64,000 nt of DNA from a virus (Duplodnaviria > Heunggongvirae > Uroviricota > Caudoviricetes): IMG/VR virus record IMGVR_UViG_3300024270_000010; one strand, given 5' to 3'. This document shows, piece by piece, positions 53,060 through 57,670 of this stretch. The notes under the pieces were generated by a model. It had not been told where the DNA came from. It searched no databases and saw only the letters and a list, made by a program, of their open reading frames with translations. Made by a program: the position numbers and the translations under genes. Position 1 is the first letter of the stretch. Each line of letters begins with the position of its first letter.

Positions 53060-53240
53060 CTAAATAAGACTCTACCCTTATTTTTATTTTTGATTACGAG
53101 AGCGTTCATTATAAAATAAATTACTAACACCCAATCATCGGAAGAATTTTGCCAAGAGGCAAGGTTTATATACTTGATAAAATACTGCAAATATATAAAA
53201 CTCTCAAAGAGAGTTATAAATAAAGTCAATAACAAAACAG
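53060..53240 (-). ncRNA. DGR spacer-like conserved RNA block, copy B (paralogue of 56100..56270), 3' of TR-B
   Basis: About 170 nt nearly collinear with the block between TR-A and the RT (shared ...gagaacgttcattata...accaagaggyaaggtttat...ataaaactctcaaagagagttataaataaa...). Contains the small hairpin ctctcaaagagag. Confidence 0.5.
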
Positions 53241-53375
53241 TGGCCACCGATATTCGCATTCGCATTCGACGTGGAATTGTTCAAATTCAGATAGAAAGGA
53301 CCAGTATTCAGCCTGTTATTCCAATTACTACTGAAGTTCGTGACGTGAGACGAATTGCAATTCGTATCGTGGAAT
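53240..53375 (-). repeat. DGR template repeat TR-B (cognate to VR-B), with IMH* GGTGGCCACTG at its 3' end
   Basis: Aligns with VR-B over about 135 nt. Every mismatch falls at a TR adenine (T on the plus strand); examples are gat/gac and att/acg. The apparent Asn-rich ORF 53204..53410 is this non-coding copy. Confidence 0.75.
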
Positions 53376-53435
53376 AAATATTTTATCGTATAAGTAACCC
53401 ATATATTCAAAGAATTTTACTATTCTTTAAATTTT

Positions 53436-54629
53436 TTATAATTTTTGGATGCGGCCACCGACATTCGCACTCGCACTCGACGCGGAATCGTTCAAACGCA
53501 GAAAGAAAGGACCAGAAGCCAGCCCGTTAGCCCAATAACCACCGAAGCGCGCGACGCGAGACGAATTGCAACCCGCATAATCAGAGAAGTAAGTTGTACC
53601 ACTACCTCCTTTAGCCGTTATAACAAATCCGCCTTCACTAGTACCTAAACAATTGGTATAATATCCATAAGTATTACTAGTGAGTCCAGAAGCATTGGTA
53701 AATTCATAATTAGTGCCAGAATCATCAAAAGCTCCAGTAGTAGTTAAATAATTTCTAGAAGCATCAGTAACAATGCCATCACACCATTTAGAAATATTAC
53801 CCCAAAAATTTTCAATTCCCGCAAATTTCATACCTTCAGTATCCGTTCCACCATAATCCAATCCTTGATTATTCATTGTTCCAGTAATAATAGGAGCAGA
53901 ATTAGAACTATTAGTATAACCATATCCGAGAGCAGTTTGTCCATTCAAAGATTTATATTTTATAACATACATGGCCTATAAATAAACTAATTGATAGTAA
54001 GCAAACTACTCATAACCATCGCCATTTAGTTGGGCTGCCGCACGAAACTCACTAATAGTTTTAGAAGCCGTAGGGGTTTTATTACTTAAACTACGTAATT
54101 TACCATCACTATCAATATAGCCATCATAAGCACCAGTATAAAATGTATCTAAATCTTTATTATGCGTATGTGCGTAATAAGTAAAATCTGTATTAGCAAT
54201 ATCATTTGTAAAACTAACAGTAACTTTATTATCGTCGCTTTTAGTAATTCTTAATCCTCTTCTTGGAAAAGCAATCATTACATCTCCTGCACTTCCACTT
54301 TCAATATCTACTGGATTACCATTAATATCTTCAGCGTAATTATTAGGATTTAATTTTACAACTTCTACTCCATCTTTCATAAGAACGGGATAATGTCCGA
54401 AAAATTCATCCCAAGCAGAAGATTTTGCTTCCATGGTAAATGCGTCATCCTCATAAGAACAACAAGTGTCAGGATTAGAATCATTTAAATCAATAATAAC
54501 AGTCATTACTTTTACCGGCTCTTCATCTAGTTTTGTTCCAATTTCAATTAACGCATCTTCAATATGCTCCACATGAGAAGCACACCACTTATCAACAAAA
54601 TCATGTAAATTCATTCTTTCATAAGGCAT
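53436..54629 (-). CDS. DGR target protein B (paralogue of 56444..57670) with C-terminal variable region; 2 in-frame TAG (54006-54008, 53976-53978)
   Basis: The 207-aa and 178-aa ORFs are joined in frame: DGYE[TAG]FAYYQLVYL[TAG]AMYVIKYKSLNG aligns with the intact paralogue DTYEQFAWFQLIYLQAMFIMKYKSING, so both TAGs match CAA Gln. C-terminus RVARFGGYWANGLASGPFFLRLN...GGRIQKL carries the GG(C/Y)W-AGPF motif. Confidence 0.7.
53450..53585 (-). repeat. DGR variable repeat VR-B with IMH GGTGGCCGCATCC at the 3' end (inside target B)
   Basis: Differs from TR-B only at TR-adenine positions; GC-rich IMH at the gene terminus versus IMH* at the TR. Confidence 0.75.
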
Positions 54630-54651
54630 AAATTCACATCCTATTCTTACT

Positions 54652-54759
54652 TATTTAATATTTTATCAATTTCCTCTTGTAAATTTGGAAATCTCAAAAT
54701 TACTGCATCATAATCTAATTTTCCTTCTTTAATTCTCATAGCTAAGTATTCAGCCATAA
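54652..54759 (-). CDS. small protein (about 35 aa)
   Basis: ATG 54759 gives MAEYLAMRIKEGKLDYDAVILRFPNLQEEIDKILNK; not in the ORF track. Confidence 0.25.
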
Positions 54760-54761
54760 AA

Positions 54762-54992: not shown

Positions 54993-56055
54993 ATCTTTGT
55001 ATCTCCTTTCCTTGAATAACGCATTTTTTATATATCTCCATAGAACGATAAAATGTTCTAAAATATTTATTAATAAAATTAGACATTGTTGTCTAATCTA
55101 TTATCCCTTTATAAGAGAAAAAAGCACAAAATTCGTGATAAGTTGGTAAAAATATTTCATCTCGATAATAAGAATTATATAACATTTTTATTATAAATTT
55201 TCTCACCTTTTTATAAGTTCGTTTACGCAAAATAATTCTATTATGAAAATGTCTATATCCTACAAAATCTATTCCCCTAATATCTACAGGAAAAATCTAA
55301 TAATTATCTTTTATTTCTAATTTTAATTCTTCTTGAAGATATTTTTTTATTTGATAAAAATATTTCCATAACTATTTTTTATTATTTCCTAAAATTACTA
55401 TATCATCCATATAACGAATAATATATTTAATTTTCAATTCTTCTTTACACCAATGATCAAAAAATGATAAATAATAATTTGATAAATATTGTGATAGATA
55501 AGAACCAATAGGTAAACCATTATTACAACTTTCAATAATTTTATCTAAAAGCAATAAAGTCTATTTATCTTTAATTTTTTTACGAATTAGTTTTTGTAAA
55601 ATAGTTTGATTAATATTTGGATAAAATTTTTTTATATCAATTTTCAAGCAATACTAAGTATTTTTAACATCTTTTAGATATTTTTTAGTAAGATTAGTTG
55701 CTCGTGTAATTCCGGCATTTTTTATAGAAGCACAACTATGATAACAAAAATGTTTTACTAAAGTTGGTTCTAACTATAACATAATGGCCCATTGAATAAT
55801 TCTATCTGGATAATAAGGAAGTTTCATAATTTCTCGCTCTTTTCCACTATCCTAAATTATTGAATGCTTATAGAGTGAAACCTAATATTCATTATTTAAT
55901 AATATTTGTTGAATCTATTTTAGATTATTATCTAAATCTTTTTCAACTTTTTTTACTGAACGATAATGAGATTTATCCTATTTAGCCATTTTGTGTGCTA
56001 ACCGCAAATTATCCATATTACATATTTTATCAAAAATATTATTTAGACGTTTCAT
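54910..56055 (-). CDS. DGR reverse transcriptase with about 11 in-frame TAG codons; the 3' end is uncertain (TAG at 54964-54966 or TAA at 54910-54912)
   Basis: AGAAGGA RBS then ATG 56055: MKRLNNIFDKICNMDNLRLAHKMAK (RT domain 0). Then I.DSGKEREI.KLPYYPDRIIQWAIM, KIDIKKFYPNI (domains 1-2), GLPIGSYLSQYLSNYYL (domain 4), IRYMDDIVILG (YxDD, domain 5), and thumb. The frame is continuous only if TAG is sense. Confidence 0.8.
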
Positions 56056-56099
56056 ATTAATTCCTTCTATAATTATTGTTATTTTTATAAGGTTTTAGT

Positions 56100-56270
56100 A
56101 AAAAATATTTTTACTAAAACCTTATTTTATTTTGACTGAGAGAACGTTCATTATAATAAAATAATTACTAATACCCATTATCAGAAGAATTTTACCAAGA
56201 GGTAAGGTTTATGTATTTAGAAAAATATTATATATAAAACTCTCAAAGAGAGTTATAAATAAAATAACAA
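56100..56270 (-). ncRNA. DGR spacer-like conserved RNA block, copy A, between TR-A and the RT
   Basis: Position and conservation with copy B (53060..53240). Lies immediately 3' of TR-A and 5' of the RT start, as for the Sp region of the Bordetella-phage DGR RNA. Confidence 0.5.
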
Positions 56271-56271
56271 A

Positions 56272-56410
56272 AGAGTGCGTGCCGATATTCGAATCCGTAT
56301 TGTCGGGTGTTTCATTCACATTGAAGATGAAAGGTCCAGTATTCAGACTATTATTCCAATAACCGCTGAAATTCGCTACGTTACTGGGATTGACATTCGA
56401 ATTATCGGAA
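56272..56410 (-). repeat. DGR template repeat TR-A (cognate to VR-A), IMH* GGCACGCACTC
   Basis: 139-nt alignment with VR-A at a constant 184-nt offset. All differences are at TR adenines (plus-strand T), for example gacattcgaattatcggaa versus gacatccgaagcatcggaa. The Asn-rich pseudo-ORF 56209..56424 is this copy. Confidence 0.8.
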
Positions 56411-56443
56411 GTATATTTTTCCATACAATTAACCTATATTATT

Positions 56444-57670
56444 TTATAGTTTTTGGACGCGCGCGCCGACAACCGAACCCGCAGCGTCGGGCGTACCATC
56501 CACACCGAAGAGGAAAGGCCCAGCAACCAGACCATCATCCCAACAACCGCCGAAACGCGCCACGCGACCGGGATAGACATCCGAAGCATCGGAAAAATAA
56601 GTTGTCTCGCTACCAGCACCGATCATTTTCTTTAACGCAAAACCGCCTTCAGAAGTGGCACAAGGATAAATTAAATAATCCTCTAAATAACCATTTTCGG
56701 CAACTTGTTCTGTATCAACTTCCGCAGTAATTTCGTATCCTTCACCATAGTCGTTGAAATTATTAGTTGTAATTTTATAATTGCAATTATCATCAGAGAC
56801 AATGCCATCAACCCAATTCCAAATATTACCCCAGAAATTTTCAATACCAGCAAATTTCATACCTTGAGTCATATCTGTGTTATCTCCGTCATAGGGAATA
56901 CCCCAGTCCAAACTGCAAGTATTCATAATGCCAGAAGCTATTGCTTCCTCTCCATTTACATTACCACATCCAAGAGAAGATTGGCCATTAATTGATTTAT
57001 ACTTCATAATAAACATAGCTTGTAAATAAATTAATTGAAACCAAGCAAATTGTTCATAAGTATCTCCATTGTTGTGTGCGGCCGCACGTGCTTCACCGAT
57101 TGTTATATTACAAGCAGGAGTTTTACCACTCAAACTACGTAATTTATTATTTTCATCAATATACCCATTATAAGCACCGATATAAAATGTATCTAATGAA
57201 TTATTATTAAAAGTATGAGCGTAATATTCAAAATTATCAGGATCTTCAATATTGGTAAAACTAATTCTTATTTTCATATCAATCTCATTTCCTGTAATTC
57301 TTAATCCTCTTCTTGGAAAAGCAATCATTACATCTCCTGCACTTCCACTTTCAATATCTACTGGATTACCATTAATATCTTCAGCGTAATTATTAGGATT
57401 TAATTTTACAACTTCTACTCCATCTTTCATAAGAACGGGATAATGTCCGAAAAATTCATCCCAAGCACTTGCGCCCGCAGACATTTCGCTAGCATCATCC
57501 TCATAAGAGCAACAAGTTAATGGATCTGAATTAGATAAATCAATAACAACAGTCATAGTCTTACCAAATGCTTTATTATATAATCTTACTAATTCATCTT
57601 CAATATGTTCTACATGAGAAGCACACCACTTATCTACTCCATCTTGAAGATTCATTCGTTCATAACTCAT
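56444..57670 (-). CDS. DGR target protein A (408 aa) with C-terminal variable region
   Basis: Intact paralogue of target B. C-terminus RVARFGGCWDDGLVAGPFLFGVDGTPDAAGSVVGARVQKL carries the GG(C/Y)W-AGPF motif, with the VR at the last roughly 45 codons. Confidence 0.75.
   Translation of the reverse strand: MSYERMNLQDGVDKWCASHVEHIEDELVRLYNKAFGKTMTVVIDLSNSDPLTCCSYEDDASEMSAGASAWDEFFGHYPVLMKDGVEVVKLNPNNYAEDINGNPVDIESGSAGDVMIAFPRRGLRITGNEIDMKIRISFTNIEDPDNFEYYAHTFNNNSLDTFYIGAYNGYIDENNKLRSLSGKTPACNITIGEARAAAHNNGDTYEQFAWFQLIYLQAMFIMKYKSINGQSSLGCGNVNGEEAIASGIMNTCSLDWGIPYDGDNTDMTQGMKFAGIENFWGNIWNWVDGIVSDDNCNYKITTNNFNDYGEGYEITAEVDTEQVAENGYLEDYLIYPCATSEGGFALKKMIGAGSETTYFSDASDVYPGRVARFGGCWDDGLVAGPFLFGVDGTPDAAGSVVGARVQKL
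56455..56594 (-). repeat. DGR variable repeat VR-A with IMH GTCGGCGCGCGCGTCC (inside target A)
   Basis: See TR-A; the GC-rich 3' element differs from the TR version. Confidence 0.8.

Follow-up and report, generated by a model that had tools for sequence, protein, structure and literature searches.

Diversity-generating retroelements (DGRs) with more than one template repeat (TR), without the accessory protein Avd or with amber recoding have already been described (PMC6642488, PMC5758913, PMC12386605). The DGR of the Bordetella phage depends on Avd, which binds RNA sequence downstream of the TR (PMC6182149). Avd proteins are basic, with a pI of ~9.5, and an accessory gene is absent from ~29% of the curated DGRs (PMC5758913).

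The DNA analysed here (the window) is a stretch of 64 kb from a large gut-type phage. The genome apparently comprises ~206 kb; contigs carrying proteins of the target/RT locus reach this length. The retroelement is located in the tail-fibre module, and all of its features are on the minus strand (Table 1). We consider it likely that the locus is an active, Avd-less DGR of a phage with TAG-to-Gln recoding, in which one reverse transcriptase (RT) is combined with two self-contained cassettes, each 3' of its own target gene.

Table 1. Features of the retroelement and adjacent ORFs (positions refer to the window)
Feature	Position	Strand	Details
Target gene A, tail-collar-fibre-like, C-terminal C-type-lectin-fold variable domain (predicted)	56444..57670	-	intact ORF, 408 aa
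VR-A, variable repeat, 3' end of target A	56459..56594	-	codons ~362-401 hypervariable
Long-range duplex A, 5' strand	56413..56435	-	AGGUU / UGUAU / GGAAAAAUAU pairs with 56205..56228 (RNA duplex prediction)
TR-A, template repeat A	56275..56410	-	43 adenines; invariant; repeat alignment, 0 differences across related contigs
P0 hairpin 3' of TR-A	56238..56254	-	AACUCUC-UUU-GAGAGUU; fold and terminator-like scan
Long-range duplex A, 3' strand	56205..56228	-	ends in conserved AACCU directly 5' of P1
RT-17-like RNA, copy A	56120..56215	-	P1 hairpin UACC-UCUU-GGUA, A-run, UAGUA...GAA domain
Very stable AU hairpin, RNA copy A to RT start	56087..56125	-	-18.7 kcal/mol, z -6.0
DGR reverse transcriptase	54910..56055	-	381 aa ORF with TAG = Gln; conserved aa 1-346
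orf76, small acidic conserved protein	54762..54992	-	overlaps RT 3' end; phrog_18126; pI 5.3
orf36, small conserved ORF	54647..54757	-	phrog_8908
Target gene B, paralogue of target A	53436..54629	-	397 aa, 2 in-frame TAG
VR-B, variable repeat, 3' end of target B	53451..53578	-	25/25 TR-B mismatches at adenines
Long-range duplex B, 5' strand	53377..53400	-	GGGUU / UAUAC / GAUAAAAUAUU pairs with 53162..53186
TR-B, template repeat B	53240..53367	-	invariant; repeat alignment, 0 differences across related contigs
P0 hairpin 3' of TR-B	53199..53215	-	same sequence as cassette A copy; fold and terminator-like scan
Long-range duplex B, 3' strand	53162..53186	-	RNA duplex prediction
RT-17-like RNA, copy B ('orphan')	53077..53172	-	no RT gene behind copy B
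Stable hairpin closing cassette B	53050..53078	-	-15.3 kcal/mol, z -3.6

TR-A and VR-A aligned without gaps over 136 nt at an offset of 184. Each of the 35 mismatches affected an adenine of TR-A (26 A>G, 5 A>C and 4 A>T), and eight adenines were unchanged; the probability of such a restriction by chance is P = 4e-25. TR-B and VR-B (offset 211, 128 nt) differed at 25 positions, each of them a TR adenine (P = 2e-17). The re-alignment thus agrees with a first-pass annotation of this DNA, which had placed every mismatch at a TR adenine, and corrects its count of about 30 mismatches per pair. The two TRs are distinct from each other (~65–68% identity), as had been claimed. Each target is indeed followed by its own TR, but the gap between VR and TR, given before as about 40 nt, is 48 nt in cassette A and 83 nt in cassette B. 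The ends of the homology match the earlier description of GC-rich VR ends with variant TR ends: VR-A ends in GGCGCGCGCGTCC and TR-A in GGCACGCACTCTT, VR-B in GGTGGCCGCATCC and TR-B in GGTGGCCACTGTT.

The reading of the targets as paralogues with terminal variable regions held as well. The proteins are 61% identical (cluster P0003), each gene has its VR at the 3' end, and both match phrog_5302 'tail protein' (8e-49 for target A and 1e-54 for target B). For the AF2 model of target A (pLDDT 90.4), the best Foldseek matches in the PDB were TaqVP (5vf4, 3e-11), Mtd (1yu0-4) and TvpA (2y3c), and comparison with BFVD yielded tail collar fibre proteins with a TM of up to 0.84. The modelling supports a C-type-lectin fold for the targets, as in DGR variable proteins, and the targets are presumably receptor-binding proteins.

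Only one RT match was obtained in the window. The ORF contains 11 in-frame TAG codons and the motifs YMDD and IGSxxSQ, and it matched Pfam RVT_1 (2.5e-19) and phrog_1423 (6e-101). The best match in the PDB was 8ub7 (E 2e-32), which we take to be bRT of the Bordetella phage. The RT is DGR-type, and a single YMDD-bearing RT between the two loci, readable only with TAG as sense, is what the first-pass annotation had reported. The amino acid indicated for TAG is Gln: the TAG at aa 253 of the RT corresponds to Gln in 57 of 60 homologues, and both TAG codons of target B lie opposite Gln in target A. These alignments support the reading of TAG as Gln in this phage.

Folding of the TR-spacer RNA predicted a duplex, P0, P1 with an A-run and an RT-17-like domain in each cassette. 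The order 3' of the target is duplex 5' strand, TR, P0, duplex 3' strand, P1, RT-17-like domain and stable hairpin. The conserved block noticed earlier between TR-A and the RT gene exists and follows both TRs; its length is ~155 nt instead of ~170 nt, and the stable hairpin behind it is separate. P0 lies within a 34-nt tract that is 100% identical in both cassettes (repeat D14). Duplex A had an empirical p of 0.0 with respect to random windows. In duplex B, the pairing is kept with sequences unlike those of cassette A (empirical p = 0.058). Across 42 cassettes (including the two of the window), the duplex flanking the TR reached an empirical p ≤ 0.05 in 71%, compared to 5%, the chance level, when a different candidate pairing was tested. 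A priming duplex between the TR 3' end and the spacer was sought, and none was detected. The AU hairpin located behind RNA copy A and ahead of the RT gene lacks a U-tract on the coding strand, and the terminator scan flagged the + orientation only.

The Rfam scores of the RNA domains were all under the gathering threshold: copy A reached 33.3 bits with RT-18 and 26.9 bits with RT-17, and copy B reached 35.1 bits with RT-17 (E 4e-5, local search) and 29.7 bits with RT-18. A separate RNA model (R1) was built from 21 relatives with the window sequences excluded. On both strands of the 64 kb, R1 had exactly two hits, one behind each TR (copy B: 50.6 bits, E 5e-9; copy A: 43.3 bits, E 2e-7). R1 gave 72 hits in related loci totalling 1.2 Mb; of these, 71 were directly 5' of an RT gene, and the other was the distal copy of a two-cassette contig, L050. 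Compensatory pairs occurred in P1 and P2 of the family, and the closing pair of P1 is G-C in copy B and A-U in copy A. The same RNA family, with support from covariation, is present behind both TRs. By analogy, the flanking duplex and P1 may act like the cDNA-stop element of the Bordetella phage.

That no obvious Avd-like gene is present, as had been noted, was borne out by family searches: neither the adjacent ORFs nor any small ORF of the window had an Avd or four-helix-bundle match in Pfam, PHROG functions or NCBIfam. A protein in the role of Avd might nevertheless be required and be encoded by orf76, orf36 or a gene outside the window. The essential Avd of the Bordetella phage speaks for this, as do the overlap of orf76 with the RT, its position behind the RT in 10 related loci and the location of P0, fully conserved between the two cassettes, at the site of the Avd-binding stem-loops in Avd-containing DGRs (bioRxiv 10.1101/2023.10.23.563531). 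Still, we regard it as unlikely. In contrast to the basic Avd proteins, the four adjacent ORFs encode acidic proteins (pI 4.4–5.3), and the curated DGRs include the abovementioned share without an accessory gene. Moreover, a related contig (L090) carries an orf76 homologue directly behind a target homologue, without RT or TR. Hence, orf76 behaves as an ordinary phage gene and is probably such a gene, not a DGR accessory. The retroelement appears to need no accessory protein.

From the single RT in 64 kb and the RNA family common to both cassettes, we infer that this RT serves cassettes A and B. Two separate DGRs, with the RT seen here serving cassette A only, are improbable. The window covers 64 kb, less than the contigs with these proteins, and one related contig (L087) contains two DGRs, both complete and each with a different RT. 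There, however, each RT is beside its own TR, whereas cassette B has no RT of its own within 10 kb on either side. The shared RNA family, the identical P0 tract and the near-identical P1 and UAGUA...GAA argue for one cognate RT. In addition, the layout of one RT and two cassettes was found again in L050, within the 21 kb fetched.

With one RT for both cassettes, the proposed mechanism would start with the transcription of each cassette. The RT would then bind the folded RNA (that of cassette A by proximity in cis, that of cassette B in trans), and the cDNA would finally replace the cognate VR. The choice of the cognate VR would depend on TR/VR homology and on the GC-rich 3' end, which is distinct for each pair. 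In this way, the ligand-binding face of two paralogous tail-fibre proteins with a putative C-type-lectin fold would be diversified independently.

The hypervariability at adenine positions that the first-pass annotation had proposed to look for was found between samples in both targets, only at adenine-templated sites. Near-identical contigs from other metagenomes differed from the window almost exclusively at such VR sites. One contig (L101) had 20 differences over 3.1 kb, and all 20 were adenine-templated sites of VR-A (P 4e-40). For VR-A, 19/19 differences in L098 and 15/16 in L099 were at adenine-templated sites; for VR-B, the values in four contigs were 20/20, 18/18, 17/17 and 20/20. TR-A and TR-B were unchanged in all related contigs compared. 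Among contigs with 97.5–100% identity to the window, four to five different sequences of VR-A and VR-B occurred. Among 16 protein variants of target A and 14 sequences of target B, the VR changed only where the TR codon contains A (mostly AAT), and no codon without A in the TR varied. Several TR adenine sites, two of them synonymous, were always G in the VR among the few distinct sequences; this could be due to substitution bias or selection. As the VRs differ at adenine sites while both TRs are invariant, VR-A and VR-B are both under current diversification in nature.

This leaves very little room for the view that one or both cassettes are relics, in which the adenine differences record the past activity of an element that no longer works. 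Decayed TR/VR pairs are known from other phages (PMC12386605), but these carry extra non-adenine changes, and neither pair of the window has a single non-adenine mismatch. The RT ORF is intact with TAG as Gln, and the VRs of the 97.5–100% identical contigs differ at adenine-templated sites only, in one case without any non-VR difference in 3.1 kb. There is next to no chance that the VR variation arose without reverse transcription, through recombination or through ordinary positive selection acting at receptor-binding residues: tail-fibre tips are often hypervariable, and targets A and B have exchanged sequence elsewhere (a 174-nt identical tract), but the explanation is contradicted by the restriction of the differences, as these processes would not confine >150 of them to positions templated by the adenines of a nearby non-coding repeat.

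Compared to the Bordetella phage target site, which has a hairpin after the VR, no significant hairpin was found behind VR-A or VR-B. The architecture is shared by L050, a TAG-recoded IMG/VR phage contig with two TR/VR pairs and one RT in a 21-kb stretch; its RT-17 RNAs, one behind each pair, are above the Rfam gathering threshold, while the copies in the window are below it. The element adds a new, well-documented member to a known kind of system and does not represent a new kind. The new detail is the complete RNA scaffold around each TR, consisting of the flanking duplex, the hairpin with its A-run and the RT-17-like domain.

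The locus is a genuine, active diversity-generating retroelement (DGR), and a clean two-cassette example rather than a new category. It combines differences between template repeat (TR) and variable repeat (VR) that are confined to adenines, a nearby reverse transcriptase (RT) of the DGR clade, VRs at the 3′ ends of protein-coding targets, evidence of ongoing homing and an IMH that differs from its IMH*. The overall explanation that we consider likely is an active DGR with one RT and two template cassettes, each lying 3′ of its own target gene. All DGR features are on the minus strand of the window. 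The core order is target–VR–TR–RT, and the second TR cassette is found 2.7 kb downstream of the RT. In either target, the VR covers the final ~45 codons.

Features of the DGR locus
Feature	Coordinates	Strand	Basis
Target gene A (408 aa)	57670..56444	minus	ORF
VR-A	56459..56594	minus	
TR-A (non-coding repeat)	56410..56275	minus	repeat analysis
Conserved block A (~155 nt)	after TR-A	minus	two-copy repeat
34-nt tract with P0, cassette A	56230..56263	minus	
RNA copy A	56120..56215	minus	R1 43.3 bits, E 2e-7
Very stable terminal hairpin, cassette A	56125..56087	minus	fold, z −6.0
Reverse transcriptase ORF	56055..54910	minus	open only with TAG as sense
Small ORF orf76	54992..54762	minus	ORF
Small ORF orf36	54757..54647	minus	ORF
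Target gene B (397 aa, 2 in-frame TAG)	54629..53436	minus	ORF
VR-B	53451..53578	minus	
TR-B	53367..53240	minus	repeat analysis
Conserved block, copy 2	after TR-B	minus	repeat
34-nt tract with P0, cassette B	53191..53224	minus	
RNA copy B	53077..53172	minus	R1 50.6 bits, E 5e-9
Terminal hairpin, cassette B	53078..53050	minus	fold, z −3.6

The first-pass annotation had claimed that VR and TR differ only at TR adenines, and re-alignment bore this out. TR-A and VR-A align without gaps over 136 nt (offset 184), with 35 of 35 mismatches at TR adenines; the chance probability of adenine-only mismatches is 4e-25. The changes were mostly A>G (26), followed by A>C (5) and A>T (4), and eight adenines were kept. 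Adenine-templated VR positions number 43 in pair A and 38 in pair B. The alignment of pair B is ungapped as well (128 nt, offset 211), and all 25 mismatches fall at TR adenines (chance probability 2e-17). Pair A shares no 8-nt exact seed. The identity of TR-A to TR-B is only ~65–68%.

The same annotation let each VR end in a GC-rich IMH and each TR in a variant IMH*. This holds for both pairs: the GC-rich ends of the homology differ between VR and TR (GGCGCGCGCGTCC vs GGCACGCACTCTT in pair A, GGTGGCCGCATCC vs GGTGGCCACTGTT in pair B). Their role in directionality is putative. The last VR codons, at the GC-rich end, were invariant among the protein variants of both targets. A search for a hairpin or cruciform 3′ of the VRs gave weak AT hairpins only (z +0.56 and −0.28, not significant). 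Such a post-VR element serves target recognition in BPP-1 and, to our knowledge, is not established as universal among DGRs.

Relatives for a population comparison were obtained by an exact-protein look-up of orf76, the small ORF 3′ of the RT. It returned ten metagenome contigs (ENA, JGI samples) that were 97.5–100% identical to the window. Exact-pattern searches of IMG/VR with the P0 hairpin and with a TR-A 30-mer gave no match. One related contig, L101, differed from the window at 20 VR-A positions, all of them TR-A adenine sites, and nowhere else in 3.1 kb (chance probability 4e-40). The corresponding numbers were 19 VR-A differences, 19 at adenine sites and 12 elsewhere in 3.1 kb for L098, and 16, 15 and 15 for L099. 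For VR-B, every difference was at a TR-B adenine site in each of four contigs (20 of 20 in L096 and in L105, 18 of 18 in L097 and 17 of 17 in L102). TR-A and TR-B were unchanged in every related contig compared.

Protein variants gave the same picture. The 90%-identity clusters held 16 members for target A and 15 for target B, and 16 and 14 variants, respectively, were compared. Hypervariable residues (362–401 in target A, 353–390 in target B) are exactly the codons with an adenine in the TR codon, mostly AAT, and none of the adenine-free VR codons varies in either target. The population variability expected at adenine-templated sites is thus present in both VRs, with invariant TRs. The evidence for activity is a between-sample comparison of contigs and clustered protein variants. 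On this evidence, both VRs are being diversified in nature at present, and the DGR is demonstrably active.

Two side observations concern these contigs and their VRs. Several TR-A adenines are G in every distinct VR-A, of which there are only four nucleotide sequences. These sites include the synonymous changes GTA>GTG (codon 370) and GGA>GGG (codon 384) as well as codons 374, 383, 397, 403 and 404; possible causes are an overall preference for A>G, selection and mutagenesis that depends on the site. The contigs L098–L101 begin and end at 57416–57467 and 54277–54295, inside a 174-nt tract that is repeated in the two targets. As these ends fall within the repeat, it is probably the repeat and not the VRs that fragments assemblies at the targets. 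The targets are paralogues with 61% protein identity. The tract (54244..54417 and 57294..57467) is 100% identical between them, compared with 74–82% for the DNA around it, which suggests recent gene conversion between the paralogues.

The RT matched Pfam RVT_1 (2.5e-19) and PHROG 1423 (phrog_1423, 'reverse transcriptase'; 6e-101). Its best match among solved structures was 8ub7, an RT of 328 residues (E 2e-32), which we take, also from its length, to be the Bordetella phage bRT. Retron and group II intron RTs scored far lower. The motifs LPIGSYLSQ and YMDD are present, with the DGR signature IGSxxSQ in the 8ub7 alignment. Judged by these sequence features, the RT is of the DGR type. Its identity to the IMG/VR relatives found is at most 52%.

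As the first-pass annotation had noted, the RT is readable only with TAG as sense. Minus-strand ORFs lengthen under this reading, which restores the RT (11 in-frame TAG), target B (2), the ORF 57677..58105 (142 aa; 5), a neighbouring 1393-residue repeat protein (3) and several other genes (1–3 each). TAG most likely encodes Gln (genetic code 15), since both TAG codons of target B align with Gln of target A, and 57 of 60 homologues have Gln opposite the TAG at aa 253 of the RT. No tRNA gene, including a suppressor tRNA with anticodon CUA, was found in the 64-kb window. The TAG load of the RT is 11/381 (~3%) at a GC3 of 0.14; target A and most genes of the window contain no TAG. DGR finders that use the standard code would miss this RT.

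Further genes of the window code for an NAD-dependent ligase, topoisomerase II, PhoH, NAMPT, an RNA ligase, a SIR2 protein and RNase H. The longest contigs with these proteins measure 206 kb, which fits a jumbo phage. A genome of this kind could hold a second RT that serves cassette B; the 64-kb window contains no RT match other than the one between the two cassettes, and we regard a second RT as improbable. The preferred reading is that the single RT would act in trans on cassette B.

An NAD-related cluster on the minus strand (2387..4375, 20805..21551, 23833..25623 and 26435..27226) encodes an NAD-dependent DNA ligase, a cytidylyltransferase-like protein (possibly of the NMN adenylyltransferase type), a nicotinamide phosphoribosyltransferase and a SIR2-family protein. 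GC content is 0.42–0.47 in 14000..36000 and 0.27–0.37 in the tail-fibre/DGR region (48000..62000), where GC3 falls to 0.14–0.23. This shift in base composition suggests a mosaic origin of the DGR-containing module. GenBank phages yielded no megablast match to the region. Three minus-strand ORFs (37854..38591, 40900..41628 and 61337..62218) carry repeated 'YWIC-C-CG' cysteine motifs. At least the second and third look paralogous, and the C-terminus of the second is DUF2726-like. Their GC3 values are 0.19, 0.14 and 0.26, and in-frame TAG occurs in the second and third. They look like mobile endonuclease-type insertions.

In Rfam, the conserved blocks after both TRs were nearest to RT-17 (RF03020) and RT-18 (RF03021). 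Both copies stayed below the gathering thresholds: 35.1 bits (copy B) and 26.9 bits (copy A) against 40.4 for RT-17, and 29.7 bits (copy B) and 33.3 bits (copy A) against 41.3 for RT-18. The RT-17 gathering score was passed by the related loci L081, L083, L050 (twice), L030 and L001. A covariance model, R1, was built from 21 related loci with the window left out. Searched against both strands of the whole window, it gave exactly two matches, each 60–67 nt after a TR. Related loci totalling 1.2 Mb held 72 matches, of which 71 were directly 5′ of an RT gene and one was the distal copy in L050. P1, a hairpin followed by an A-run, closes with G-C (17) or A-U (16) in all 33 occurrences, without a mismatch, and the P2 stem showed several compensatory changes. 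Both copies share the consensus (P1 hairpin, A-run and UAGUA...GAA domain) with its covariation, and copy B does not adjoin an RT gene. By the independent model and by covariation, both belong to an RT-17-like RNA family.

The 34-nt tract with P0, a small hairpin 3′ of the TR (AACUCUC-UUU-GAGAGUU), is 100% identical between the cassettes, in surroundings of ~78% identity. Its position is that of the Avd-binding stem-loops in Avd-containing DGRs; no Avd was found in the window. In the relatives, the RNA runs directly up to the RT start codon. The hairpin that separates RNA copy A from the RT would accordingly be an insertion specific to the window phage. The terminal hairpins of both cassettes have no U-tract on the coding strand and were for that reason not accepted as intrinsic terminators. 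A processing site, 3′ end protection and an opposite-strand terminator are candidate roles.

A predicted duplex surrounds each TR. Its strands, in cassette A and cassette B alike, are ~23 nt just 5′ of the TR and ~24 nt that end in a conserved AACCU directly 5′ of P1. The cassettes have different sequences in the three helical segments (AGGUU, UGUAU and GGAAAAAUAU in cassette A; GGGUU, UAUAC and GAUAAAAUAUU in cassette B), with the pairing kept. The duplex was evaluated in 42 cassettes, the two of the window included, each against random windows of the same locus. It was found at an empirical p ≤ 0.05 in 30 of the 42 (71%), with a median z of −2.4, and its sequences are unrelated from one locus to another. 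Another candidate pairing, of the TR 3′ end with the linker that comes after P1, served as a method control. This priming duplex, proposed by analogy to TR:Sp of BPP-1 and suggested by inspection of both cassettes, found no support across relatives (5% at p ≤ 0.05, median z +0.1). Together, the duplex and the hairpin-and-adenosines element match the description of the cPRT Stop of BPP-1 (bioRxiv 10.1101/2023.10.23.563531). That element was reported in DGRs with Avd, from cryo-EM of the Bordetella phage ribonucleoprotein (bioRxiv 10.1101/2023.10.23.563531, section 10). In the Bordetella phage, cDNA synthesis owes its processivity and template specificity to the RNA downstream of the TR (PMC6182149). 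By this analogy, each cassette looks like a complete, autonomous DGR RNA.

No obvious Avd had been seen at first reading, and the profile searches agree. The four adjacent small ORFs had no match to Avd or other four-helix-bundle families in Pfam, PHROGs or NCBIfam, and a Pfam scan of 54 small ORFs of the window, joined into two artificial polyproteins, found no Avd. Accessory genes (Avd, HRDC, MSL, CH1) are typical of DGRs and not universal; the window has none. The four adjacent ORFs are acidic (pI 4.4–5.3), and Avd proteins are basic (PMC5758913). The lack of Avd does not disqualify the locus as a DGR, because 29% of a curated set have no accessory gene, and one RT lineage is without avd altogether (PMC5758913). 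Independence from an accessory protein would be in keeping with this.

The small ORF orf76, which comes after the RT in ten related loci, was considered as a DGR accessory. It was rejected: its protein is acidic, and in L090 (IMGVR_UViG_3300006133_000057) its homologue adjoins a target homologue with neither RT nor TR, so that it behaves like a gene of the phage with DGRs as neighbours. In L090, the orf76 homologue follows the target homologue directly, and no TR, VR pair or RT was detected. This locus resembles an 'empty' version of the site that the DGR occupies in other relatives.

Target A had no Pfam match and matched PHROG 5302 ('tail protein'). A sequence search against the PDB returned only chance-level T-cell-receptor matches. 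Its AlphaFold model (55 homologues, mean pLDDT 90.4) had as best PDB matches the DGR variable proteins TaqVP (3e-11), Mtd and TvpA, and also the formylglycine-enzyme-like PvdO. Among viral models, it matched 'tail collar fiber' proteins of numerous uncultured gut phages, crAss-like ones among them, with a TM of up to 0.84. The targets are thus predicted to have the C-type-lectin fold of DGR variable proteins, target A by its model and target B by its 61% identity.

Fibre-like genes lie nearby. A 158-aa protein (59467..59943, minus) has an N-terminal Mtd_N domain (PF18454, 8e-13), which takes its name from the BPP-1 tropism determinant. The protein also matches the N-termini of many tail-fibre PHROGs; its gene lies 1.8 kb upstream of target A and has no VR. 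The 409-aa protein of 58207..59436 (minus) is coiled-coil and fibre-like, with internal repeats of 81 nt and ~39 nt, and is probably a coiled-coil fibre shaft. An N-terminal motif, FLDxxGxxxLWSKI, is common to this ORF and 57677..58105 (minus), both of them directly upstream of target A. Given the matches of the targets and these neighbours, a receptor-binding role of the targets is a reasonable inference.

In the mechanism that we propose, each cassette would be transcribed; its flanking duplex, P1 and RT-17 domain would close around the TR and bring in the RT. cDNA synthesis with misincorporation opposite adenines would follow. The cDNA would then replace the VR of its own pair, since the divergence of TR-A from TR-B is too great for cross-homing, and the last few codons, at the GC-rich end, would never be replaced. 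Translation of the RT would depend strictly on TAG suppression, so its TAG load may gate mutagenesis to a recoded, presumably late, phase of infection. A portable cassette (stop duplex, TR, P0, P1 with A-run, RT-17 domain) may be what functions as a unit in Avd-less RT-17-type DGRs; it could be copied beside any lectin-fold gene and served in trans by a single RT. The joint reading, with self-contained portable cassettes, one RT acting in trans without an accessory protein and TAG-gated mutagenesis, is tentative, and we think it somewhat more apt to fail than to hold. If it is true, several receptor-binding proteins of one phage would be under independent hypermutation.

For a natural DGR that acts on two genes simultaneously, the locus is unusually clean: its templates are invariant, and otherwise near-identical phages differ in the VRs only at adenine sites. 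The recurrence of the Bordetella-type duplex and hairpin-and-adenosines element around RT-17 in an Avd-less class leads to a concrete proposed function for RT-17. DGRs have been installed and reprogrammed in E. coli (bioRxiv 10.64898/2026.07.21.739853; PMC12875486), and retargeting would gain from a template cassette able to act in trans.

Every unusual feature of the locus (multiple TRs, no Avd, an amber-recoded RT) has already been reported. We found no description of an extra TR with its own full RNA scaffold, or of the flanking-duplex element in the Avd-less RT-17 class. BPP-1 (mtd-avd-TR-brt), the DGR prototype, has an RT homologous to that of the window (8ub7, E 2e-32), and both systems show adenine-specific mutagenesis from TR to VR, with the VR at the 3′ end of a lectin-fold tail-fibre gene. 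The window differs in having no detected Avd, RT-17-like RNA instead of Rfam RT-10 (PMC5737381), no significant hairpin after its VRs, two template cassettes for one RT gene and an RT gene that needs TAG as Gln. RT-17 and RT-18 (Weinberg et al. 2017, PMC5737381) lie directly 5′ of the RT gene, as does copy A, and have the P1 hairpin (ACCUU-GCC-UCUU-GGC-AAAA) and the UAGUA...GAA domain in common with the window copies. In contrast to them, both window copies score below the gathering thresholds and one does not adjoin an RT. These motifs were found beside bacterial RT genes, with no function assigned beyond a speculated DGR role for some RT motifs, and the same authors connected RT-10, a sister motif, with the BPP-1 TR-RT spacer (PMC5737381).

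The core order is that of 'Architecture A' (TR-RT core, PMC5758913), without avd, HRDC, MSL or CH1; the extra TR cassette downstream of the RT sets the window apart. No mention of multiple TRs turned up in the text of that survey (Wu et al. 2018, PMC5758913). Stenotrophomonas sp. SKA14 has two TRs and one RT, as in the window (Yan et al. 2019, PMC6642488). In the same work, 216 of 271 multi-VR DGRs have a single TR, which leaves ~55 with more than one (PMC6642488). Among Zeta crAss-like phages, Lera and ct1yV3 carry three TR-VR pairs, with more than one TR per RT, and the targets are tail-fibre proteins with C-terminal lectin domains, again as in the window (PMC12386605). Seven RT genes of that set have suppressed amber codons, and most of its DGRs are without Avd (PMC12386605). 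Unlike the window, Lera and ct1yV3 have Avd, and their extra pairs carry non-adenine changes for which the authors suggest past activity (PMC12386605), whereas both window pairs are clean and active. In PMC6642488 and PMC12386605, we found no description of a per-TR duplication of the whole RNA scaffold.

Nearly all of the ~90 related IMG/VR loci have one TR between target and RT. L087, with two TRs, was rejected as a second example of the window architecture, as it has two RTs. The layout of the window recurs in L050 (IMGVR_UViG_3300000286_000005). This TAG-recoded contig of 98 kb has two targets, and a VR, a TR and an RT-17 RNA belong to each. Its RNAs score 43.9 and 43.8 bits, above the gathering threshold, whereas the window copies are below it. 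One RT was found in the 21 kb fetched; it follows the second cassette and is 48% identical to that of the window. The targets of L050 (449 and 1344 aa) differ greatly in length and are not close paralogues, unlike those of the window, and its orphan cassette is upstream of the RT, while that of the window is downstream.
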